Shown: in pieces, positions 1,145-9,602 of the stretch
Layout of the letters: each line of letters starts with the position of its first letter
Numbering within the stretch: the stretch's first letter is position 1
From: a virus
Lineage: Duplodnaviria; Heunggongvirae; Uroviricota; Caudoviricetes
DNA: 9,602 nt
IMG/VR virus record: IMGVR_UViG_2695420708_000010
Reading direction: 5' to 3' (one strand)
Notes under the pieces: generated by a model
What the model was told of the DNA's origin: nothing
Databases searched by the model: none
What the model saw: only the letters and a program-made list of their open reading frames with translations
Translations under genes and position numbers: made by a program

Positions 1145-1221
1145 TGGACCGCCATCGGGGACTTGAACCCCGCGCAGCCAGCTTCGAAGGCTGGCGCTCT
1201 TTCCTGATGAGCTAATGGCGG
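1145..1221 (-). tRNA. argN: tRNA-Arg, anticodon UCG (reads CGA/CGG), 77 nt with encoded CCA
   Basis: Hand-folded: acceptor CCGCCAT/ATGGCGG, D stem GCTC/GAGC, anticodon stem CCAGC/GCTGG with loop CTTCGAA, T stem CGGGG/CCCCG with loop TTCAAGT. Unusual 5' C. Symbol from memory; not verified. Confidence 0.8.
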
Positions 1222-1228
1222 TATGTGA

Positions 1229-1304
1229 TGGTGGCCCTTGCTGGATTTGAACCAGCGACCTGGCGATTATGAGTCGCTCGCTCTCACCACTGAGCTAAAG
1301 GGCC
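1229..1304 (-). tRNA. ileZ: tRNA-Ile2-like, anticodon CAU (ileX/ileZ type, presumably lysidine-modified to read AUA), 76 nt with encoded CCA
   Basis: Hand-folded: acceptor GGCCCTT/AAGGGCC, D loop AGTGGTGA, anticodon loop CTCATAA, T loop TTCAAAT. Resembles E. coli ileX as I recall it; Met versus Ile cannot be settled from sequence alone. Confidence 0.85.
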
Positions 1305-1344
1305 GGGAGCCGCATAATAACGACGCGTAATTAATTCTTCAATA

Positions 1345-2403
1345 TCATCCGTTCTGGCTGACTAAATCCTGTACTTCCCGAACCGTCTGCTCAAAACGTT
1401 CAGTCTCCAGCTCAACGCCAATTGCACGACGCCCGAGCGCCAGTGCCGCTTTCACTGTCGAACCCAACCCCATGAAAAAATCTGCAATCAGGTCACCCGG
1501 ACGACTGCTAGCGCTGATTATCTGCTGCAGCATTTCTGCCGGTTTTTCGCACGGATGTTTCCCGGGATAGAACTGCACCGGTTTATGCGTCCACACATCG
1601 GTATACGGCACCTGCACCGTCACGCCAAAATACCGCCGCAGATGTTTATATTCACTCAGCAGCTCCGCATACTGCCGGTTCAGTGAGGTATACGTATCCA
1701 CCAGCTGGTGGTGGAGCTTTTCCAGTTCACCACGCCGATGCTTCTCTTCTGCCACCCGGGCAAACAGCGCCTGTAATTTCAGATAATCGCTTTCATTCGG
1801 CAACTGCCACTGACCGGCACTGAACCAGTGCGACACCATGTTTTTCTTTCCTGTGGCATCTGCAATCTGTTTTGCCGTTATCCCCAGGGCAGCTCGCGCA
1901 TCACGAAAGTAAGAAATCAGCGGGGCCATCACATGCTGTTTCAGTGCACTGCCCTTCGCCGCATACCCGGCATCTTTCGGACGATACGGCCCCTGATAAT
2001 GTTCCGCGAACAGAATGCGCTCTGTGGCGGGGAAATACGCCCGCAGGCTTTCCTTGTTGCATCCGTTCCAGCGTCCGGACGGCTTCGCCCAGATAATATG
2101 GTTCAGCACACTGAAGCGTTCACGCATCATGATTTCGATATCAGATGCCAGGCGATGACCACAGAACAGGTAAAGACTTCCGGCAGGTTTCAGCACCCGC
2201 CAGAACTGCGCCAGACACTGGTCCAGCCACTTCAGGTAATCATCGTCGCCCTTCCACTGGTTATCCCAGCCCTCAGGCTTCACTTTAAAGTACGGCGGGT
2301 CCGTGACTATCAGGTCAACAGAATTTTCGGGTAACGACCGGATAAATTCCAGGCAGTCGGCGTTGATTAACTCACAACTGGATATTTTTACAGTATTAAG
2401 CAT
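1345..2403 (-). CDS. DNA methyltransferase, beta-class N6-adenine or N4-cytosine (N6_N4_Mtase family), 352 aa
   Basis: ORF track. Motif IV DPPY (VDLIVTDPPYF) precedes the AdoMet motif I (DFFMGLGST), the order that defines beta-class amino-MTases; C-terminal HPCEKP...ASSRPGD block resembles YhdJ-type enzymes. ATG start, weak SD. Confidence 0.9.
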   Translation of the reverse strand: MLNTVKISSCELINADCLEFIRSLPENSVDLIVTDPPYFKVKPEGWDNQWKGDDDYLKWLDQCLAQFWRVLKPAGSLYLFCGHRLASDIEIMMRERFSVLNHIIWAKPSGRWNGCNKESLRAYFPATERILFAEHYQGPYRPKDAGYAAKGSALKQHVMAPLISYFRDARAALGITAKQIADATGKKNMVSHWFSAGQWQLPNESDYLKLQALFARVAEEKHRRGELEKLHHQLVDTYTSLNRQYAELLSEYKHLRRYFGVTVQVPYTDVWTHKPVQFYPGKHPCEKPAEMLQQIISASSRPGDLIADFFMGLGSTVKAALALGRRAIGVELETERFEQTVREVQDLVSQNG

Positions 2404-2435
2404 GGATCATTAAGCCTGTCTCTGATAGGCTCATT

Positions 2436-2454
2436 CTGCTTTTGCGCAAAGCAG
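2436..2454. promoter_or_regulatory. Imperfect palindrome CTGCTTT-TGCGC-AAAGCAG about 33 bp upstream of the methyltransferase start; candidate operator or 5'-UTR hairpin
   Basis: 7-bp inverted arms around a 5-bp centre; no U tract, so not a terminator. Confidence 0.35.
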
Positions 2455-2495
2455 TGGGCCTGAGGTTTGCTTGTGAACCCAACGCATGAGCAGAT

Positions 2496-2526
2496 GGCTG
2501 GTGGGTGCCCCTAACACCCACCAGCC
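2496..2526. other. Perfect 12-bp stem, 7-nt loop hairpin (GGCTGGTGGGTG-CCCCTAA-CACCCACCAGCC) between ORF 2554..2751 and the methyltransferase
   Basis: Arms are exact reverse complements; not followed by a U tract on either strand; function unknown. Confidence 0.5.
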
Positions 2527-2537
2527 GCCCATTTACC

Positions 2538-2566
2538 ACAAATAAAAAAGCCTTCACTGCGGAAGG
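2538..2566 (-). terminator. Rho-independent terminator overlapping the stop codon of ORF 2554..2751
   Basis: Minus-strand RNA GCCUUC-CGCAGU-GAAGGC followed by UUUUUUAUUUG. Confidence 0.65.
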
Positions 2567-2751
2567 CGTCTGTAACAACCGAACTGATAGTCTGCCAGAC
2601 CCGCCATAACCAGCTGGGTCAGTATTAACTGGCAGCGTTCGCGTGAAAGGTAAGTATTCTGCGCTATCTCCCCGACTGTCGCCGGTTCGGTAACGCTTAA
2701 TTCATTAAACACCACTCTGGCGGTTTCTGTCATATCCTGCTGTTTTAGCAT
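2554..2751 (-). CDS. Hypothetical 65-aa protein with a helix-turn-helix-like segment (TVGEIAQNTYLSRERCQLILTQL); possible small DNA-binding regulator
   Basis: ORF track; ATG at 2751..2749 with AAGGAAAAG RBS; ends in a terminator; lies just upstream of the methyltransferase. Confidence 0.5.
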   Translation of the reverse strand: MLKQQDMTETARVVFNELSVTEPATVGEIAQNTYLSRERCQLILTQLVMAGLADYQFGCYRRLPQ

Positions 2752-2869
2752 GTCTTTTCCTTTTCCGGTTAACGTGACACACCAATAACTCTTGTCGAAA
2801 AAGCCAGCAAGCTGAAAGACAGGTATTCACCGCCACCAGCGCGTTTACTGTACTGACGCGATTTCAGTC

Positions 2870-2896
2870 ATAAAAAACCCGCTCGGCGGCGGGTTG
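2870..2896 (-). terminator. tR'-like terminator, second copy (identical to 5209..5235)
   Basis: Minus-strand RNA A-CCCGC-CGCCGA-GCGGG-UUUUUUAU; lies inside the 2870..3394 repeat block. Confidence 0.7.
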
Positions 2897-2942
2897 TAGA
2901 AACTCTTCTAACGTCAGGCATAAAACGCCCATAGTTATGACG

Positions 2943-2970
2943 AATTTACCACAGATTCCGGAAAAATCAA
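2943..2970 (-). promoter_or_regulatory. PR'-like late promoter, second copy (identical to 5282..5309)
   Basis: Same sequence as the promoter downstream of the intact Q gene, offset 2339 bp. Confidence 0.4.
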
Positions 2971-2975
2971 CCTTG

Positions 2976-3394
2976 TTACCTAGTTACCTTTTTTAACTGC
3001 CGCTCAGCCCATGCTTCTTCAATATCAAACCGGGTCACCAGCGCATCATAAAATTTCTTAACTGTTTTTTCCCATGACGCGCGTGTTATCTGGTTTGTCA
3101 CCTCGCATATAGCATTAAATGCCTCCGTTGATGGTAGTCTTTCATAGCCACGACCACCACAACGCTGGCAGTCTCTGATAACAGGCATACCACGTTTTAC
3201 CGACTCTTCACGATGAATGGCGACACCACGCCCACGGCAATCCTTACAGGCGGTGGAAACCTCACCCTTTCCGCCACACTCCGGACAGGCAACTTTTACC
3301 ACCTCCCTGACTTTTTTCCATTCTTCCCAGTAAGACGGATACACACCTTTCGTACACTTTGCCCATACCGGCGGCTTACCATCCGGATACTGGA
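2976..3394 (-). pseudogene. 3' fragment of a Q-like antiterminator gene (C-terminal ~139 codons with the CxxCxGxG zinc-finger repeats), fused at 3394/3396 to the AT-rich module
   Basis: 2870..3394 matches 5209..5733; the intact gene's N-terminal ~134 codons are missing. The 191-aa track ORF 2976..3551 takes its first 52 codons from AT-rich module DNA with a GTG start and no SD. Confidence 0.8.
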
Positions 3395-3604
3395 AAGTGT
3401 TTAAATGCCATGGTTCTTTCCACCATCTGAAAAATAATTCTTTAAAATACCTGACATGTAATACAGAAAAAACACAAAACCATACCTTAAATAAAAACCT
3501 GATTATCAAGCAGATATGCATGGATAAACTACAAGACGAGATATAAACCACCCTGCATTTAAATAAACAATAAACAACATCAGAAAAATAATTCTGCTCT
3601 ATGG

Positions 3605-3671: not shown

Positions 3672-4007
3672 ATGAAGTGGATTGTGATTGATACAGTTAT
3701 CCAGCCATCATGCGGAATATCTTTTTCAGTCATATGGAGTAAAATAAAATTAATAATCTGGTATCAATCGGATGCTTTCTTACCTCCTGAAAGTATATTT
3801 ACACTGACTCACACAGGCATCATGCTCAATAACAAAGTGCTACCTGTAACCATTTACAACGTAGTACCATTCAATAAAACATTCTGGAATTCAATCAAAA
3901 ATAGCCAGGAATGCCCTACAAATACAGATAACGTATTGAATGAATGCTTTAATAACCGTTGCACTCTGCAAATATGTCCTTATGGACTAAAACAACAAAG
4001 TCCATAA
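3672..4007 (+). CDS. Hypothetical 111-aa protein, second copy identical to 428..763
   Basis: ORF track; identical translation; same RBS and promoter. Confidence 0.45.
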
Positions 4008-4041
4008 GGAGTTTACTCACATCTGACAAAATCAATATAAA

Positions 4042-4063
4042 CAGCCCCTCCGGAGAGGGGCTG
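4042..4063. terminator. 9-bp stem hairpin, copy of 798..819
   Basis: Identical sequence to copy A. Confidence 0.5.
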
Positions 4064-4287
4064 GAGAGTGGCGCTATGTGCCATTGCATGGTGCCGGGTG
4101 CCTCCCGGTGAATTCAGTACCAGCACCTGAATCCGCGATTATCCCATATACCTACTCGCTGATTGCCCCTCCGCACAGGGGGATTCACCATGCCAGTTTC
4201 TTTTAACAAACTCCCCGCAAACCAGACAACAGTCAACCGCCTGAATTGTGAAGTATTTAAAAATTTCTCCCGCTAACTGATACCCGG

Positions 4288-4454: not shown

Positions 4455-4781
4455 CTACCCCAGATGAGTAATCCGAAGTTCATCCATACCACAGGTCCTG
4501 GCTATTCTGTTGTACTCCTGAACAAGAGCAAATAATTCTGAATTAGCAACCATGAACTCATCGCAAACCCTCTGTATAGCATCACTATTCAGAATAATAA
4601 CGTCTCTTCCCGAAAGACGATCAGGAGTACAGAACAAAACTGTCAAACGGCTGAAGGCCTTTGCTCGTGCTGCATTGACTATATCAATACGCTGCCTAAG
4701 GATGAAACACCCCGACGCCTCATCAATATTCACTCTACCCACACCATATGAATGATAAATATTTAATGCTGAAAAAACCAT
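4455..4781 (-). CDS. Hypothetical ~108-aa protein (117 aa from the TTG at 4808); no family recognised
   Basis: ORF track 4455..4808 begins at TTG; first ATG is at 4781..4779; no convincing SD for either start; sits directly downstream of the tRNA cluster on the late strand. Confidence 0.3.
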   Translation of the reverse strand: MVFSALNIYHSYGVGRVNIDEASGCFILRQRIDIVNAARAKAFSRLTVLFCTPDRLSGRDVIILNSDAIQRVCDEFMVANSELFALVQEYNRIARTCGMDELRITHLG

Positions 4782-4918
4782 TAGACCGTATAACAAACAC
4801 TCAATCAATACTTAACAGAACTTTTATTTTTGACAAACATAAAATATTTTCAACAATATCCTGAGCCAGGTATATTTCAGTATAAGGCTCTGCCGGAAGG
4901 AATCTGGAAGAATGAATA

Positions 4919-5008: not shown

Positions 5009-5088
5009 TGGACCGCCATCGGGGACCCGCCCCCGCACCAACAACCCTGTTATCATGTCGTCTGCTCTTCCTGATAAGCTAATGGCGG
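5009..5088 (-). pseudogene. Degenerate tRNA-Arg-like element: acceptor stem and D arm conserved, anticodon arm, variable loop and T loop replaced
   Basis: The 5' ~25 nt and 3' ~17 nt align with the intact Arg-UCG tRNA at 1145..1221; the middle (AGACGACATGATAACAGGGTTGTTGGTGCGGGGGCGGG) gives no anticodon stem-loop by eye and the T loop lacks TTC. Confidence 0.55.
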
Positions 5089-5095
5089 TTTGTGA

Positions 5096-5171
5096 TGGTG
5101 GCCCTTGCTGGATTTGAACCAGCGACCTGGCGATTATGAGTCGCTCGCTCTCACCACTGAGCTAAAGGGCC
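5096..5171 (-). tRNA. ileZ: tRNA-Ile2-like, anticodon CAU, 76 nt; identical to 1229..1304
   Basis: Identical sequence to the other copy. Confidence 0.85.
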
Positions 5172-5208
5172 GGGAGCAGAATAATAACGGTCCGTAATTA
5201 ATTCCGCA

Positions 5209-5235
5209 ATAAAAAACCCGCTCGGCGGCGGGTTG
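5209..5235 (-). terminator. tR'-like rho-independent terminator between the Q-like gene and the tRNA cluster
   Basis: Minus-strand RNA A-CCCGC-CGCCGA-GCGGG followed by UUUUUU; about 80 nt downstream of the Q stop. Confidence 0.7.
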
Positions 5236-5281
5236 TAGAAACTCTTCTAACGTCAGGCATAAAACGCCCATAGTTATGACG

Positions 5282-5309
5282 AATTTACCACAGATTCCGG
5301 AAAAATCAA
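5282..5309 (-). promoter_or_regulatory. PR'-like late promoter (-35 TTGATT, 16-bp spacer, extended -10 TGgTAAATT); would give a ~65-nt transcript ending at tR'
   Basis: Hexamers at 5309..5304 and 5287..5282 on the minus strand, immediately after the Q stop codon (5315..5317). Confidence 0.4.
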
Positions 5310-5314
5310 CCTTG

Positions 5315-6136
5315 TTACCTAGTTACCTTTTTTAACTGCCGCTCAGCCCATGCTTCTTCAATATCAAACCGGGTCACCAGCGCATCATAAAATTTCTTAA
5401 CTGTTTTTTCCCATGACGCGCGTGTTATCTGGTTTGTCACCTCGCATATAGCATTAAATGCCTCCGTTGATGGTAGTCTTTCATAGCCACGACCACCACA
5501 ACGCTGGCAGTCTCTGATAACAGGCATACCACGTTTTACCGACTCTTCACGATGAATGGCGACACCACGCCCACGGCAATCCTTACAGGCGGTGGAAACC
5601 TCACCCTTTCCGCCACACTCCGGACAGGCAACTTTTACCACCTCCCTGACTTTTTTCCATTCTTCCCAGTAAGACGGATACACACCTTTCGTACACTTTG
5701 CCCATACCGGCGGCTTACCATCCGGATACTGGATCTTGTTTGTAAAAACCTCGCTTTCAATAAATTTTTTTCCGTGACAGCAGGGGCACTGTTTTTTGCT
5801 CGCCGCGCTACGGGCATAATCTTCAAACGCATACGAAGCCATAATACGCATCACTGCCGGTTTTATTTCTGCCGGGAGTTTTCTTAACGCCGCCACGCGA
5901 TCACACCGACTGAGTGCATATTCTGTCAGCAATTCTGTTGCCCGCTCTCTGTCATTCATACTAATGCCCATTTTCCCAAGGAACGCAGAAACCCCCATCT
6001 CAGCCCGATTCTGTGTCATGCCCTGCGCGGCCATCACATCAGTGATACTCAGCGCATCTTTCGACGTTGAGGCCGATGCATCAGTCAGGCCGGGGGATTT
6101 TGGGGAGTAGTATTTCGGTAAATCTTCCAGTTTCAT
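5315..6136 (-). CDS. Antitermination protein Q-like, 273 aa, with DnaJ-type CxxCxGxG zinc-finger repeats
   Basis: ORF track; position between rusA and PR'/tR'/tRNAs is the canonical lambdoid Q position; ATG overlaps the rusA stop (ATGA); motifs CPCCHGKK, CPECGGKG, CKDCRGRG, CQRCGGRG. Family assignment rests on synteny and motifs, not a search. Confidence 0.75.
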   Translation of the reverse strand: MKLEDLPKYYSPKSPGLTDASASTSKDALSITDVMAAQGMTQNRAEMGVSAFLGKMGISMNDRERATELLTEYALSRCDRVAALRKLPAEIKPAVMRIMASYAFEDYARSAASKKQCPCCHGKKFIESEVFTNKIQYPDGKPPVWAKCTKGVYPSYWEEWKKVREVVKVACPECGGKGEVSTACKDCRGRGVAIHREESVKRGMPVIRDCQRCGGRGYERLPSTEAFNAICEVTNQITRASWEKTVKKFYDALVTRFDIEEAWAERQLKKVTR

Positions 6137-6513
6137 TTTTTGACCTGCCCTTCAAGCATTATGGGATAAATCTTCACCCCCAGACGTCCACCAGATACTG
6201 GCTGAGCACGAACGATATTGATTTCATCAAACTGCTCATCGTCCATTAGCAACCCCGCATGCGTCAGCGCATCCAGCGGCGCTTTCAGAATATTGTCCAG
6301 GTCACGGCGGCGCTTATCCGGTGGTTCTGCAATAATTTTTATTGCCAACCTTCCGGACAGGCTTAATTTCAGCCGCTGCTGGCGAACAATAAGCGCCACT
6401 GCCCGGCGATAACGCTCCCCGGCTTTTGATACAAAATATGTGCTGCCACGACGACGCCAGTAAGTGTTCACCGTCGGCGGGTAAGGTAAAACAAATTCTA
6501 TGCGCTCGGTCAT
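6133..6513 (-). CDS. rusA: Holliday-junction resolvase RusA, 126 aa
   Basis: ORF track; shows the RusA-family DxxRRRDLDN motif as I recall it; usual nin-region position just upstream of Q. Confidence 0.88.
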   Translation of the reverse strand: MTERIEFVLPYPPTVNTYWRRRGSTYFVSKAGERYRRAVALIVRQQRLKLSLSGRLAIKIIAEPPDKRRRDLDNILKAPLDALTHAGLLMDDEQFDEINIVRAQPVSGGRLGVKIYPIMLEGQVKK

Positions 6514-7572
6514 TTATGCTTTCCACTTCAGAACACCCGAATTTCTCGCGTGCATTAAAAAACGAATCAGCAACAACAGCTGACTGCCGTGTTTCTCTTC
6601 AAAATCTTTTACTCCGGCATGTAGTTCGTTACGGCATTTACGGCATAACGGAATAACAAACAAATCATCAGCCTTTGTTCCCATCCCTCCCAGTCCATGA
6701 CCAATGATGTGATGCGGATCATCTGCCTGATTGCCACACGTCATGCATTTCTGCGTTTTTACCCAGCGCGTGTATACAGGCATCTCTTCCCGTTGTGATT
6801 TCTGGCGCTGGAGATACTGAGCCGGTGACTCCGGATCAACGGCAATGCTGACCACCGTCTTTTCCTGTGGTGGGTTCTGTTGCTGGTGGACGTGAGGCAG
6901 TAACGCAATATTTTTTGTGCGCTGCTTCAGTATGCTGGTGGCTGTCTGCTCTCCCGGTATGATGTCGCTTTCACTGTACACAGAGCGAATTTTTTCCGCA
7001 CGCAACCCCAGCGAACGACGTAATACCGCTTCCGGTAGCGCGTCCGCCACCTGATTGCGGACCGCCCACCAGGATAATTCAGCCAGAGATAATTCACGCT
7101 CCTGCGTACCGCTTATTGCGTGACCGATGACGTCAATCATCCATGCTGACAGGTTTTGATGAGCAAGTTGCTCGAGTGATTCGGATGTCTGGTCACGCAG
7201 CTGGTTGTCGCAGTGCCAGCACAACACCATTGCGCCGGTACCATAACGGTGAATGACGGTTTCGCTGTGATGATAATCGCCGTGTGGCCACTGGCAGGAT
7301 TTAATATGGCGCAACAGCCAGTCAGACAATGCACCAGCACCACCAGCAGCACGAATCACCCGTGCGTTACTGAAAAACGGCAGCAATGTTTTGTCTTCCA
7401 CCAGCGGCTGGCGAGCGGCAGGAACGACCCCGGACGGCAGATTACGCATGCTTTTTGGTTCCGGCTCCACCAGTATTCTGCCGTTATGGAATGCTGACAT
7501 TGATTCACGGCCTGGCTTAACGATAACCAGACCGAGTTCCGGTACCAGAACAGGTCGAAGTAATACCCGCAC
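6514..7572 (-). CDS. DUF968-like prophage protein (YdfU-like), 352 aa, with a Cys/His-rich C-terminus (CMTCG...DPHH...CRKC)
   Basis: ORF track; GTG start at 7572 with GGAGG 5 nt upstream; family assigned from memory of Qin-prophage ydfU neighbourhood and motifs. Confidence 0.7.
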   Translation of the reverse strand: MRVLLRPVLVPELGLVIVKPGRESMSAFHNGRILVEPEPKSMRNLPSGVVPAARQPLVEDKTLLPFFSNARVIRAAGGAGALSDWLLRHIKSCQWPHGDYHHSETVIHRYGTGAMVLCWHCDNQLRDQTSESLEQLAHQNLSAWMIDVIGHAISGTQERELSLAELSWWAVRNQVADALPEAVLRRSLGLRAEKIRSVYSESDIIPGEQTATSILKQRTKNIALLPHVHQQQNPPQEKTVVSIAVDPESPAQYLQRQKSQREEMPVYTRWVKTQKCMTCGNQADDPHHIIGHGLGGMGTKADDLFVIPLCRKCRNELHAGVKDFEEKHGSQLLLLIRFLMHARNSGVLKWKA

Positions 7573-8300: not shown

Positions 8301-8329
8301 AAATAAAAACAAAAACCCGCCGAAGCGGG
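8301..8329 (-). terminator. Rho-independent terminator downstream of hok (UUCG tetraloop hairpin plus U tract)
   Basis: Minus-strand RNA CCCGC-UUCG-GCGGG followed by UUUUUGUUUUUAUUU. Confidence 0.7.
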
Positions 8330-8399
8330 TTAAGTGTGGGTGCATTGAGGATGCCTGACCCATCAGAGGTGGCGAGGGATTTCTCCCCCGCCTGGTCTC

Positions 8400-8555
8400 T
8401 TACTCCTCAGGTTCGTAAGCTGTGAAGACAGCGACCTCCGTCTGGCCGGTTCGAATTCGTACCTCGCAGAGGTCTTTCCTCGTTACCAGTGCCGTCACTA
8501 TGACGGTTAAACAGATGACGATCAGGGCGATTAACATCGCCTTTTGCTGCTTCAT
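8400..8555 (-). CDS. hokD: Hok/Gef-family type I toxin, 51 aa (HokD/RelF-like)
   Basis: MKQQKAMLIALIVICLTVIVTALVTRKDLCEVRIRTGQTEVAVFTAYEPEE is a classic Hok sequence and matches HokD as I recall it; ATG at 8555..8553 with AGGAG 9 nt upstream. The track ORF 8400..8612 is an in-frame 19-codon upstream extension. Confidence 0.88.
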   Translation of the reverse strand: MKQQKAMLIALIVICLTVIVTALVTRKDLCEVRIRTGQTEVAVFTAYEPEE

Positions 8556-8766
8556 AGCCTGCTTCTCCTTGCCTTTCGGCACGTAAGAGGCTAACCTAGA
8601 TTTGCCGTTCATAGATTGAGCCTCAGATTAATGTTAAGCGTCTTGCCGGACGCGTAATGTTAACTGGGGCTTTTCTCTATCTGCCTTTTGGTGTTCATGC
8701 CTGAGACAGATAGCCTCAAGCACCCGCTGCAATTCTACTTAACTCTCCTTTTCCCGCAAACCGTTT

Positions 8767-9365: not shown

Positions 9366-9596
9366 TTAACCCGCAGTGCTTTCAACTGATGAGGGGAACA
9401 AAATCTTTTCATCAAACCCTGCATTCATATCATGAACAGCAACACACCAATCCATCGACGAACGATTATCAAGAGCCTCCATGATTTCATCCATGCGGCG
9501 TAGGTCATACAGGTAAATGCTTTTATCGCCAATGGTGTAAAAGCCAATTTTTTTCGGTGATGGATGAGGTGTACTGGCAATAGCGGACACTACCAT
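9366..9596 (-). CDS. Hypothetical 76-aa protein; start codon and first 10 codons lie in the right terminal inverted repeat
   Basis: ORF track; ATG at 9596..9594; upstream region is outside the window. A plus-strand ATG at 9564 opens an outward frame (MRCTGNSGHYHLF) in the same region. Confidence 0.45.
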   Translation of the reverse strand: MVVSAIASTPHPSPKKIGFYTIGDKSIYLYDLRRMDEIMEALDNRSSMDWCVAVHDMNAGFDEKILFPSSVESTAG

Positions 9597-9602
9597 TTGT
9601 TC
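9565..9602. repeat. Right arm of terminal inverted repeat (reverse complement of 3..40)
   Basis: See left arm. Confidence 0.9.

Follow-up and report, generated by a model that had tools for sequence, protein, structure and literature searches.

A candidate structured leader RNA in a late-operon adenine methyltransferase cassette of lambdoid and N15-like phages

The adenine methyltransferase M.EcoGII is a commercial enzyme in wide use for chromatin and RNA footprinting, and it is reported to act on RNA too. In phage Mu, translation of the late adenine-modifying enzyme Mom is activated by the zinc-finger protein Com. According to the passages of Murray et al. (2018, PMC5778455) considered here, M.EcoGII methylates adenine without sequence specificity, is not expressed in the lysogen and harms cells when expressed constitutively; the same passages propose an anti-restriction role for the family, name phage 1720a-02 as carrier of a very similar enzyme and make no mention of a position behind pR'-tR', a winged-helix partner or a structured leader. 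In Mu-like prophages of Haemophilus and Neisseria, non-specific adenine methyltransferases replace mom (Drozdz et al. 2012, PMC3299994, in the part considered), and the toxin genes stx of lambdoid phages are under pR' control (PMC7547250, PMC6266700). Our literature searches found nothing specific on regulation of the methyltransferase in Stx phages, on methylated phage DNA after induction or on the leader sequence described below.

Here we analysed a 9,602-nucleotide stretch of DNA from a Caudoviricetes virus (IMG/VR record IMGVR_UViG_2695420708_000010, hereafter the window), which encodes a relative of M.EcoGII in a late-operon setting, preceded by a conserved leader.

The methyltransferase cassette and its late-operon setting

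The window contains two copies of a Q-pR'-tR'-tRNA unit, and a cassette carried by the downstream copy is precisely missing from the upstream one. Two repeat families, D2 (2863-3162 and 5202-5501, 99% identical) and D3 (1201-1344 and 5068-5211, 94%), are directly adjacent in the upstream unit, whereas about 1.5 kb separates them in the downstream unit. The upstream junction reads GGGTTTTTTAT joined to TGCGGAATTAATTAC, and the downstream ones read GGGTTTTTTAT joined to GACTG...GGATGATAT joined to TGAAGAATTAATTAC, so that the extra segment corresponds to 1342-2869 (1,528 nt), with a 2-nt AT ambiguity at the boundaries. In the upstream unit the tR' U-run ends at about 5211 and tRNA-Ile starts at 5171, a gap of about 39 nt, versus 1.57 kb with clean junctions in the downstream unit, where the methyltransferase stop (1345) is 40 nt from the tRNA (1304). 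The features of the region, all on the minus strand, are the following:

1055-1304: tRNA cluster with tRNA-Ile (CAT), tRNA-Arg (TCG) and tRNA-Arg (TCT) (ARAGORN and Rfam tRNA)
1314-1342: promoter-like site TTGAAG-17-TATTAT, lying after the cassette and before the tRNAs
1342-2869: the cassette, delimited by repeat boundaries and junction sequences
1345-2403: orphan beta-class N6-adenine DNA methyltransferase of the M.EcoGI/GII family, 352 aa (PF01555, E = 8e-42)
2401-2535: structured leader (candidate), about 135 nt, ending at the AUG (2403-2401)
2544-2567: terminator T2, GCCTTC-CGCAGT-GAAGGC followed by T6 (terminator scan)
2554-2751: 65-aa stand-alone winged-helix protein, with Shine-Dalgarno (SD) sequence AAGGA at 2763-2759
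2771-2810: promoter-like block with TTGCTG (2810-2805), 17 nt, TATTGG (2787-2782) and then TGTGTCAC
2870-2895: intrinsic terminator tR', with stem 2895-2876, U-run and then AT (terminator scan)
2928-2970: pR'-like late promoter (alignment with lambda pR')
2976-3551: truncated Q' (ORF list; Antiterm domain at residues 96-183; 99% repeat with intact Q)
5209-5234: tR' of the upstream unit (empty site), a 99% copy of 2870-2895, reading ...CCCGCCGCCGAGCGGGTTTTTTAT joined to TGCGGAATTAATTAC...
5315-6136: intact antiterminator Q of the upstream unit, 273 aa (PF03589 Antiterm, E = 1.6e-53)

A sequence-only reading of this DNA had placed a methyltransferase moron between tR' and the tRNA cluster, from a gap of ~40 bp upstream and ~1.5 kb downstream, and had listed an orphan beta-class methyltransferase, a 65-aa HTH-like ORF, a terminator overlapping its stop and a structured leader with a perfect 12-bp stem-loop (2526-2496) and a 19-bp imperfect palindrome (2436-2454). 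The repeat boundaries and junction reads confirm that placement exactly, and every listed feature was found, with coordinates exact or a few bases off. As in a moron, the cassette is extra DNA between features that are adjacent in related sequence; of the promoter and terminator that a moron would bring, terminators are present and the promoter-like TTGCTG-N17-TAYNNG block falls below the sigma-70 scan threshold. The region as a whole is a partial tandem duplication, which complete E. coli genomes match in pieces and none contiguously. The window also ends in a 38-nt perfect inverted repeat.

The pR'-like site consists of TTGATT (2970-2965), a 16-nt spacer with TGg and TAAATT (2948-2943), and 6 nt further on it is followed by a pause-like element, AACTATGGG (2936-2928), and then by the terminator. 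Its lambda counterpart in the alignment reads TTGACT-N17-TAAATT, 6 nt and AACGATGGG, and tR' at 2870-2895 aligns with the end of lambda tR'. This site is conserved among prophages carrying the same Q type and, by analogy with lambda biology, would work as a late promoter. Genes matching Q in the matching prophages are annotated as antitermination protein, and Q' fuses 52 unrelated N-terminal codons to the C-terminal ~138 residues of Q. At the other end of the cassette, TTGAAG-17-TATTAT was the only sigma-70-like match of the promoter scan within 1200-3100, and the empty site carries a homologous TTGCGG-17-TATTAT. The tRNAs are annotated as ileZ/argN/argO-type in Stx phages; ARAGORN calls the tRNA-Ile with its CAT anticodon Met.

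The PF01555 domain of the methyltransferase spans residues 29-340, and the motif order (DPPY N-terminal, central target-recognition region, FxGxG C-terminal) is that of the beta class, to which the best PDB sequence matches (RsrI, CcrM and MboIIA among them) also belong. The family alignment shows no variation at D35-P-P-Y38 or F310-M-G-x-G314. The protein is identical to M.EcoGII at 324 of 349 residues (93%), some mismatches being machine-reading errors in the text of the supplement of PMC11551740 from which the M.EcoGII sequence was taken; the ~25 substitutions fall mostly in the target-recognition region and the C-terminus is 3 residues longer. By sequence, this is an already known enzyme, a close M.EcoGII relative, and the non-specificity of this allele is extrapolated from the 93% identity. 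Like the M.EcoGI/GII family it is prophage-borne and orphan, since it lies in a lambdoid late region with no adjacent nuclease ORF in the window's ORF list, and PADLOC matched only methyltransferase models. Because the passages of PMC5778455 describe the family as non-specific and silent in lysogens, a methylome of lysogen versus cured strain, which the sequence-only reading had proposed, is not expected to reveal a new motif even if the module works.

The 65-aa protein is real and conserved, with 334 homologs labelled 'TrmB family' or 'hypothetical' by their sources, 44-52% identity to those in other genera and membership of phrog_331, which has no function assigned there. Its AlphaFold model (pLDDT 90) has an H-H-H-beta-hairpin fold, and its best structural matches in the PDB (Foldseek) were winged-helix domains of IclR, MarR and O-methyltransferases, with the SelB winged helix among the matches. 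Pfam matches were sub-threshold (TrmB with E = 0.0026, MarR_2 and HTH_24) and did not include HTH_3, a profile search against the PDB gave weak winged-helix matches only, and the protein has only two cysteines. Its gene lies just upstream of the methyltransferase in 53 of the 88 related loci, with a spacing of 138-154 nt, and no homolog of it is present in 24 of the 75 loci that have both leader and methyltransferase. The block at 2771-2810, which may have promoter activity, hardly varies among 48 distinct loci, whose range extends from Escherichia to Proteus and Plesiomonas. At its other end, the TGA of the small ORF (2556-2554) falls in the loop of T2; a GC-rich hairpin lies 12-15 nt upstream of the leader helix P1 in 44 of 72 distinct flanks, and the U-run at the T2 position is strong in the clade of the window and in N15 and weak or absent elsewhere.

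The same layout recurs across phage records and genomes of many genera and so is more than a chance arrangement, and a terminator begins every cassette examined. The order Q, small ORF, methyltransferase and then tRNAs/stx or lysis genes was found in Stx2 phages, phiP27, mEp460 and Providencia and Hafnia phages; Stx-converting phages carry the cassette on one late transcript with stx2, after Q and ahead of the toxin genes. Phage 1720a-02 matches the cassette at 94.7% nucleotide identity, and the closest cassette found was that of Escherichia albertii NBRC 107761 (locus L010; 96% protein identity). In N15, an annotated late promoter and terminator directly precede leader and methyltransferase, and the homolog of the small protein, gp51, is encoded outside the late transcription unit. 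We regard the cassette as self-contained and as a common accessory of lambdoid and N15-like temperate phages, located in their late operon.

A conserved leader upstream of the methyltransferase

The proposed leader structure comprises five helices, all on the minus strand:

2531-2527 with 2459-2455: P1, in the three-way junction P1-P3
2526-2496: P2, a perfect 12-bp stem, GGCTGGTGGGTG with CACCCACCAGCC
2494-2466: P3, in the three-way junction
2454-2436: P4, the 19-nt palindrome
2435-2409: P5, followed by UGAUCC and the AUG

Searches with nhmmer placed the leader in 75 of the 88 related loci, spanning E. coli, N15 and Vibrio, and a covariance model (R1) gave a single match per locus, on the methyltransferase strand and ending at its AUG, with the window's leader scoring 129 bits, similar to other family members. 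In the phage collection the leader likewise occurs once per record and adjoins the methylase wherever this is annotated. The structure was drawn by hand and then converted into the covariance model, and the case for P3-P5 depends on that drawing and on the alignment made to fit it, in which 82.3% of cells are paired, against 32-40% when the pairing is slid, and 38 of the 42 pairs changed on both sides, against 9-16; none of 500 shuffles reached the observed values, and we rate this covariation as strong. The 67 distinct leader sequences, folded singly, give the same architecture. RNAalifold recovered P1 and P2 only, and P1 only on a plain MAFFT alignment, where the variable arms are misaligned. 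No Rfam 15 model matched 2401-2535 on the minus strand (cmscan over the whole window, E up to 1); on the plus strand the region had a chance-level match to P26 (E = 0.14, 24 bits against a cutoff of 36). These data make the leader a well-supported candidate structured RNA and, it seems, an undescribed part of the cassette.

Two other explanations for the conservation of this region, coding and Chi, were rejected. No conserved upstream ORF was found in the leader: coding by the 60-aa ORF at 2396-2578 is ruled out by homologs that differ by 1-nt indels, and an ORF from the invariant AUG/GUG/UUG of P1 varies freely in frame and length, with stops from codon 3 to beyond codon 42. The 12-bp hairpin contains Chi (GCTGGTGG) and its complement, but Chi is absent from the hairpins of Hafnia, Proteus, Serratia, Vibrio and N15, which still form the helix, and by this comparison what is conserved is the structure, not the motif.

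The methyltransferase start codon has no canonical SD, and P5 ends about 6 nt before the AUG. Genes with the leader start ...GCUUACUGAUCYAUG, whereas leaderless loci, represented by Vibrio and Psychromonas only, have SDs of the GGAG/GAGA type. Synonymous sites are constrained in codons 1-10 of the methyltransferase (0.91, versus 0.56 for the whole gene). In addition, the P3 5' arm GCUCAU is complementary to the P5 5' arm AUGAGC in 83.5% of cases, versus 18-52% slid, and no covariation above shuffles was found for this alternative pairing. In Vibrio, the leader lies ~150 nt from a methyltransferase with a normal SD, so direct control of the methyltransferase ribosome-binding site cannot be the universal role of the leader. 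A Com-like zinc-ribbon ORF separates leader and methyltransferase, in that order, in three Vibrio loci; it is 29-45% identical to Mu Com, with a Pfam Com match below the curated cutoff. Finally, wobble statistics disagree between helices as to the folding strand: G.U pairs outnumber A.C in P2 and P5 (42 and 92 versus 20 and 11), favouring the mRNA strand, while A.C outnumber G.U in P3 and P4 (163 and 38 versus 11 and 12), which would pair better on the opposite strand.

Proposed expression and control of the cassette

From the position of the cassette directly behind a lambda-like pR'-tR', we infer Q-dependent late expression and an anti-restriction role, and we consider it probable that the locus is a late-operon methylase cassette with Q-dependent expression, an anti-restriction payload, control through the structured leader and an accessory winged-helix regulator. 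Q would make RNA polymerase terminator-resistant, so that it would pass tR' and T2 and reach the methyltransferase, which would be silent in the lysogen and on in the late lytic phase. Many adenines of the replicating phage DNA would then be methylated before packaging, and restriction would be blunted in the next host. The leader, between T2 and a start codon lacking a canonical SD, would most likely add post-transcriptional control, of translation or mRNA stability, and the 65-aa protein may be a frequent but dispensable accessory regulator with its own promoter-like block and a good SD. Against this explanation, Q-dependence is argued from position and resemblance to lambda, the Q directly upstream is truncated, so that the intact Q would have to act in trans or by read-through, and the promoter-like block could transcribe the small ORF independently of Q and leak through T2.

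Several other readings were considered. The leader might belong to a new class of RNA switch that gates a harmful, non-specific DNA/RNA adenine methyltransferase, with a toggle between P3 plus P5 and the GCUCAU/AUGAGC pairing opening the SD-less start; we put this forward tentatively, as possible and not as our expectation, and the candidate signals would be the methyltransferase itself, one of the two small proteins (winged-helix or Com-like) or a metabolite, for example SAM or SAH. Control could also resemble that of com-mom, with the winged-helix protein (or the Vibrio Com-like one) binding the leader RNA and switching methyltransferase translation, as suggested by the Com-like ORF between leader and methyltransferase in Vibrio, by the shared logic of a small gene just upstream of a late, harmful adenine-modifying enzyme, by the ability of some winged-helix domains, such as perhaps that of SelB among the structural matches, to bind RNA, and by a P5 that abuts a start codon lacking a canonical SD. 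Nevertheless, 24 loci keep the leader without the winged-helix gene, so the protein is not an obligatory cis activator, the Pfam match of the Vibrio ORF is below the curated cutoff and gp51 of N15 is encoded outside the late unit, and we regard this form of control as unlikely. A metabolite riboswitch, with the three-way junction as aptamer, P5 and the start region as expression platform and a ligand such as SAM or SAH, would fit a 5' leader ending at the start codon in which a multi-helix junction, conserved joining strands and covarying helices, the generic hallmarks of such elements, coexist with a mutually exclusive pairing; but this pairing does not covary above shuffles, no Rfam riboswitch matched, the leader has a narrow distribution linked to one gene family, and the Vibrio element does not abut the methyltransferase ribosome-binding site, which leaves little probability for it.

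The hairpins might instead act from the opposite strand, as a cis-antisense RNA silencing the methyltransferase or at the DNA level. The A.C cells of P3 and P4 would be antisense G.U pairs, overall pairing is 84.7% antisense against 82.3% sense, a terminator-like hairpin was called on the plus strand (2413-2431), the constraint in codons 1-10 could hide an antisense promoter, and harmful genes are often checked by antisense RNAs, a hok/sok pair being present in the same window (Rfam scan). Yet neither the scan of 1200-3100 nor visual inspection of the gene's first 40 nt revealed a promoter-like plus-strand site, the wobble counts of P2 and P5 point to the sense strand, and position and orientation relative to the start codon are fixed in 75 loci, so that this too appears improbable. 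It is equally doubtful that the cassette is an inert remnant left by prophage decay and recombination, its methyltransferase never usefully expressed: the truncated upstream Q fused to unrelated codons, the duplication, of which complete E. coli genomes gave only separate pieces, and the terminal inverted repeat, suggestive of rearrangement, would agree with it, but the methyltransferase and small ORFs, the two terminators and the leader have all stayed intact, conservation extends to the catalytic motifs, the leader scores like its relatives and 2.3 kb upstream there is an intact Q, its pR'-tR' region being 99% identical. Lowest of all we rate the controller module suggested by the sequence-only reading, in which the 65-aa protein, as a C-protein-like factor, would bind the palindrome at 2436-2454 as a DNA operator and time or limit methyltransferase transcription; this is very improbable. 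What stood of it is a small protein of HTH type, upstream in 53 of 88 loci at a nearly constant distance, and a structured leader with a palindrome between the two genes. What did not stand is the fold, which by Pfam, AlphaFold model and Foldseek is a winged helix and not the all-alpha Xre/HTH_3 domain of C proteins, and the location of the palindrome, downstream of the small gene and past its terminator, when a C-box sits upstream of the controller gene. The palindrome arms, moreover, change on both sides and stay complementary (CTGCTTT/AAAGCAG, CCCGCGA/TCGCTGGG in N15, GCTG/CAGC in Serratia-type loci) and accept G.U pairs, so they read as an RNA helix rather than a fixed operator; the small protein is dispensable, being absent from 24 leader-bearing loci, and there is no nuclease gene to time.

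Significance and relation to known systems

Natural regulation of M.EcoGII has so far been described, in the passages of PMC5778455 considered here, only as "not expressed in the lysogen". The position behind pR'-tR' offers a testable reason for this silence, as two terminators and a structured leader would precede a start codon lacking a canonical SD, and it predicts that the enzyme acts at a late lytic stage, on DNA that is soon to be packaged. Where the cassette sits between Q and stx2 on one transcript, as in Stx-converting phages, its terminators and leader lie on the path of the polymerase to the toxin. The leader is a well-supported candidate for a structured RNA, hitherto undescribed, that temperate phages of Enterobacterales and Vibrio carry, and its link to Com-like genes would connect anti-restriction by a methyltransferase with the way Mu controls mom; if the leader were only a passive stabilising or attenuating structure, the locus would be an ordinary member of a known cassette.

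The enzyme shares with M.EcoGII and M.EcoGI, from prophages of E. coli O104:H4 C227-11, its 93% identity, beta-class motif order, prophage origin and orphan state, and differs in the ~25 substitutions and longer C-terminus noted above, so that its activity and specificity are extrapolated. With Mu com-mom the locus has in common a late, harmful adenine-modification gene with a presumed counter-restriction role, behind a structured leader and a small gene of putative regulatory function; however, the enzyme is a SAM-dependent methyltransferase and not Mom, the small protein is a winged helix without zinc ribbon, and the two genes do not overlap but lie ~150 nt apart with a terminator between them. 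A Com zinc-ribbon just upstream is absent from the window, and Com-like ORFs were found only in the three Vibrio loci. The methylases of Haemophilus and Neisseria, compared here through their description in the part of PMC3299994 considered, follow the same anti-restriction idea in Mu-like and not lambdoid or N15-like phages. Restriction-modification systems with C-proteins resemble the cassette in having a small protein of DNA-binding type next to a methyltransferase, with a palindrome nearby, but here the protein is a winged helix, a nuclease gene is lacking, the palindrome follows the small gene and has the behaviour of an RNA helix, and that gene is dispensable, about a third of cassettes lacking it. 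The late morons of lambdoid phages, stx and ileZ-argN-argO, occupy the same class of site, from Q/pR'/tR' to the tRNAs and then stx or lysis genes; compared with stx, the cassette has its own terminators, a promoter-like block and a long structured leader, and stx has none of these.

Anatomy of the cassette within a duplicated late-regulatory unit

Read along the minus strand, the window has the organisation of a lambdoid late-regulatory region. In the upstream unit, intact Q is followed by tRNA-Ile(CAT) and tRNA-Arg and then by an AT-rich stretch that carries an STnc100-type sRNA as well as plus-strand iraM. The unit recurs as an incomplete second copy, which contains a truncated Q' (2976-3551; joined in frame with 52 unrelated codons read out of the AT-rich flank of iraM), the cassette region, three tRNAs (1055-1304) and a repetition of STnc100 and iraM. 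The partial tandem duplication of the Q-tRNA-STnc100-iraM unit covers 152-~1000 and 3396-~4240, and in complete E. coli genomes the duplicated arrangement was matched only piecewise.

Features of the window outside the cassette
6514-7572, minus: DUF968 protein, first in gene order
6133-6513, minus: RusA, after the DUF968 protein
5315-6136, minus: intact antiterminator Q (PF03589)
5096-5171 and 1229-1304, minus: tRNA called Met (anticodon CAT) by ARAGORN, tRNA-Ile (ileZ) in phage and RefSeq records
4455-4808, minus: ORF of 117 aa assigned to phrog_2873 (unknown function), E = 4e-70, with the upstream tRNAs on one side and STnc100 on the other; neither Pfam nor PADLOC match
4033-4222 and 789-978, minus: two STnc100-family sRNA copies (132 and 133 bits)
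3672-4007 and 428-763, plus: a duplicated 111-aa ORF that agrees in location, length and strand with a RefSeq-annotated anti-adapter IraM gene of a matching prophage
8400-8725, minus: hokD/sok type I toxin-antitoxin pair (sok 112 bits; 70-aa Hok-like ORF)
8310-8391, minus: weak isrK-like match adjoining hokD/sok (25.7 bits, below cutoff)

The Ile annotation of the CAT tRNAs fits a lysidine-modified anticodon; just upstream of them lies a promoter-like TTGAAG-17-TATTAT, which in the other copy reads TTGCGG-17-TATTAT. Both the STnc100 and the IraM-like copies lie downstream of the tRNAs, where stx sits in Stx phages. The window ends (3-40 and 9565-9602) form a perfect 38-nt inverted repeat, each arm being the start of the same ORF (MVVSAIASTP...) pointing inward, a pattern suggestive of inversion, or of rearrangement, involving two copies of the prophage.

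The sequence-only reading had proposed a moron-like insertion at the tR'/tRNA site, and this placement is confirmed by two repeat families shared by both units, D2 (2863-3162 = 5202-5501) and D3 (1201-1344 = 5068-5211), which touch in the upstream unit and lie ~1.5 kb apart in the downstream one. The upstream junction reads GGGTTTTTTAT joined directly to TGCGGAATTAATTAC, and the downstream junctions read GGGTTTTTTAT followed by GACTG... and, at the far end, GGATGATAT followed by TGAAGAATTAATTAC. Repeat boundaries and junction reads therefore delimit the extra DNA to 1342-2869 (1,528 nt), starting directly after the terminator U-run and ending 3 nt past the methyltransferase stop codon. The parts that had been described inside it were recovered as follows.

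Features of the cassette, minus strand
2554-2751: 65-aa small ORF
2567-2544: second terminator, overlapping the small ORF, whose stop codon lies within its loop
2526-2496: perfect 12-bp hairpin
2436-2454: palindrome
1345-2403: methyltransferase

Immediately upstream, the ~100 nt past the Q stop codon align with the pR' region of phage lambda. In the window, TTGATT and TAAATT are separated by a 16-nt spacer with TG and followed, after six bases, by AACTATGGG; in lambda pR', TTGACT and TAAATT are 17 nt apart and, again after six bases, AACGATGGG follows. Both regions close with a GC-rich hairpin followed by TTTTTTAT. Judged by this alignment, the terminator upstream of the cassette is a genuine tR'; the window unit is shorter, with a transcript of ~66 nt compared to 194 nt in lambda. 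From lambda biology we infer that the pR'-like promoter would be Q-responsive.

Chi sites (GCTGGTGG) occur 11 times in the 9.6 kb, compared to 0.32 expected from shuffles, and 5 of the 11 fall inside the cassette: 1698-1705 (minus), 1704-1711 (plus), 2497-2504 (plus), 2518-2525 (minus) and 2833-2840 (minus). Those at 2833-2840 and 2518-2525 are invariant in six E. coli-type cassettes, both on the late-transcript strand, which from lambda biology we take to be the active orientation for RecBCD entry from cos. The corresponding hairpins of more distant loci keep the helix without Chi.

The methyltransferase, the small gene and their distribution

The methyltransferase carries an N6_N4_Mtase domain (E = 8e-42) with intact DPPY and FxGxG motifs, and is 93% identical to M.EcoGII as given in the supplementary table of PMC11551740, a few of the mismatches being evident machine-reading errors in the text of that table. 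According to Murray et al. (PMC5778455), M.EcoGII methylates adenine in any sequence context, also accepts RNA and DNA:RNA hybrids as substrates, is unexpressed in the lysogen and, under constitutive expression, is harmful to cells; the same paper proposes that it helps phages past restriction and names phage 1720a-02 as the carrier of a very similar enzyme. Our cassette is matched in this phage at 94.7% nucleotide identity. For O111 STEC genomes, homologs are recorded as "nonspecific", and no motif could be attributed to them (PMC6602927). The enzyme and its presumed role are thus already known, and since the family is non-specific and silent in the lysogen, a comparison of lysogen and cured strain for a new methylation motif is expected to be negative even if the module works.

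The small ORF has 334 homologs, with 44-52% protein identity in Stx2c phages, Providencia and Hafnia, and a good Shine-Dalgarno (SD) sequence, AAGGA; by these marks it is a real gene. It belongs to phrog_331 (unknown function), and its AlphaFold model (pLDDT 90) shows three helices and a beta-hairpin wing, the nearest solved structures being winged-helix domains of IclR- and MarR-type regulators, O-methyltransferases and SelB. The Pfam search returned TrmB, MarR_2 and HTH_24, all sub-threshold, and no HTH_3. Across 48 distinct loci, ranging from Escherichia to Proteus and Plesiomonas, an intrinsic terminator begins the cassette and is followed by a near-invariant block, TTGCTG, 17 nt, TAY..G, embedded in CAGAGTTAY..TGTRTGTCAC. 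This block lies ~35-45 nt 5' of the small-ORF start (2810-2771 in the window) and scores below the promoter-scan threshold; its sequence resembles that of a weak promoter, perhaps one dependent on an activator.

Searching with the full 1.66-kb query, we found 21 phage records matching over at least 80% of its length (Stx2a and Stx2d phages, phiP27, 1720a-02); 96 phage records have the methyltransferase protein, and 57 the small ORF. Q, the small ORF and the methyltransferase follow one another in this order, and what comes next varies: tRNAs and stx2, tRNAs and stx2e in phiP27, tRNAs and iraM in an ST131-type prophage, or directly a holin in mEp460 and in Providencia and Hafnia phages. In the linear plasmid-prophage N15 (locus L007, 2006-2233 and 2276-2364), the small ORF has a distant homolog, gp51 (23% identity), just upstream of the annotated late promoter, which together with a terminator immediately precedes the methyltransferase and stands between gp51 and the leader described below; there the small gene therefore lies outside the late transcription unit.

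A one-genome-per-species collection was then scanned with a methyltransferase alignment, yielding 80 loci (Enterobacterales, Vibrio, Psychromonas, Gilliamella), which combined with the phage loci gave 88 loci with usable upstream sequence. A small-ORF homolog is located upstream in 53 of the 88, with a stop-to-ATG distance of 147-154 nt in Enterobacteriaceae and 138-143 nt in Morganellaceae, and the leader was detected in 75, among them 24 in which unrelated cargo genes take the place of the small ORF. Retention of the leader in these 24 loci indicates that the core unit is leader plus methyltransferase, the small gene being frequent but dispensable. The 65-aa protein had been read as an HTH-like controller of the methyltransferase. 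Its HTH-like character holds, but the fold that defines C proteins was not found, the model being a winged helix, and with HTH_3 missing and the gene itself absent from those 24 loci the controller-protein reading is not supported.

A conserved structured leader

The ~150 nt that separate the small ORF from the methyltransferase could be aligned out to N15, and in this alignment both previously noted hairpins keep their pairing while both arms change. Folded singly, 67 distinct sequences gave one common architecture.

Helices of the leader, in 5' to 3' order
P1: closing helix, UGGGC/GCCCA (UGAGC/GCUCA in one Mixta locus)
P2: long hairpin directly stacked on P1; the 12-bp stem
P3: second hairpin, after which a strand of ~5 nt leads back to P1 and completes a three-way junction
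P4: the palindrome
P5: ends ~6 nt before the AUG

From 15 sequences and a hand-proposed structure we built a covariance model, which detected a single element at each of 75 loci. The element was invariably on the methyltransferase strand and lay immediately 5' of the methyltransferase, except in three Vibrio loci. In the phage collection there is one leader per record, beside the methylase wherever this is annotated. The pairing counts come from the model-based alignment, which was fitted to the proposed structure.

Pairing in the model-based alignment, proposed partners versus partners slid by 1-3 columns
Cells with a standard pair: 82.3% versus 32-40%
Pairs changed on both sides, of 42: 38 versus 9-16
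Covariation score: 0.236 versus 0.02-0.06

None of 500 shuffles reached any of the observed pairing or covariation measures. RNAalifold, run on the same alignment, independently recovered P1 and P2 (15 pairs, 12 with compensatory changes) and did not recover P3-P5. The palindrome had been proposed as an operator; the retention of P4 pairing through changes in both arms speaks against this. The 5' arms of P3 (GCUCAU) and P5 (AUGAGC) are highly complementary, and this alternative pairing showed no covariation. A coding function of the leader was ruled out.

Leader-bearing genes start in the context ...GCUUACUGAUCYAUG, with no canonical SD and a conserved GAUC directly before the AUG; leaderless genes have an ordinary GGAG/GAGA SD in the Vibrio and Psychromonas loci, whose start contexts were read. 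Synonymous-site conservation over methyltransferase codons 1-10 (2374-2403) is 0.91 compared to a gene mean of 0.56, AUGAAAAAUACUGUA... being nearly invariant, and this excess indicates that the constrained element extends into the coding sequence, where it could reflect the translation-initiation region, leader pairing or an antisense promoter.

The strand on which the helices act was also considered, as they may instead function as an antisense RNA or at the DNA level. P2 and P5 contain more G.U pairs than A.C cells, fitting the mRNA strand, whereas P3 (2466-2494) and P4 (2436-2454) contain 163 and 38 A.C cells against 11 and 12 G.U cells, and these A.C cells would be G.U on the opposite strand, where overall pairing is 84.7% compared to 82.3% in sense. 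At one place in P3 the E. coli clade has tandem C.A/A.C, and Hafnia and Morganellaceae have C-G/G-C. Against an antisense or DNA-level element, however, the scan of 1200-3100 found no antisense promoter, and the position and orientation relative to the methyltransferase start codon are fixed, which argues for an element acting as an mRNA leader.

We found no matching Rfam family, and a search for the sequence in the literature found nothing. The leader is real and conserved well beyond E. coli, is apparently undescribed so far, and is the only part of the cassette with real novelty.

Proposed working and comparison with Mu com-mom

Anatomy, homology, distribution and covariation are observed here, and the enzyme's non-specific activity, silence in lysogens and harm to cells are taken from published work. 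We propose that in the lysogen polymerase starting at pR' would halt at tR', and that after induction Q-modified polymerase would pass tR' and the second terminator into the methyltransferase, the tRNAs and beyond. Because the cassette directly follows a truncated Q, antitermination would need to come from the intact one (5315-6136); the pR'-tR' region of its unit is 99% identical to the cassette-side copy. The enzyme would then methylate replicating phage DNA before packaging, so that this DNA would be shielded against restriction when the next host is infected; the leader may add post-transcriptional control over an enzyme that must not leak, and the winged-helix protein would be a modulator of the system, not an essential component.

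The three Vibrio loci have the leader ~150 nt 5' of a methyltransferase whose SD is normal, so that masking the ribosome-binding site of the methyltransferase itself is not the leader's sole role. The gap between them (L079 2328-2438, L080 2341-2466, L081 2325-2453) codes for a 41-45-aa protein with two CxxC pairs, whose best Pfam match is Zn_ribbon_Com (E = 0.0016, below the curated cutoff) and which shares 29-45% identity with Mu Com across the zinc-ribbon core. Mu Com, annotated as translational regulator of Mom, works through a stem-loop of the mom leader to which it binds. The Vibrio loci thus resemble Mu com-mom in having a Com-like ORF before a modification gene, although the enzyme here is a SAM-dependent methylase, and this layout indicates that the methyltransferase family is under the same kind of multi-layer control as mom.
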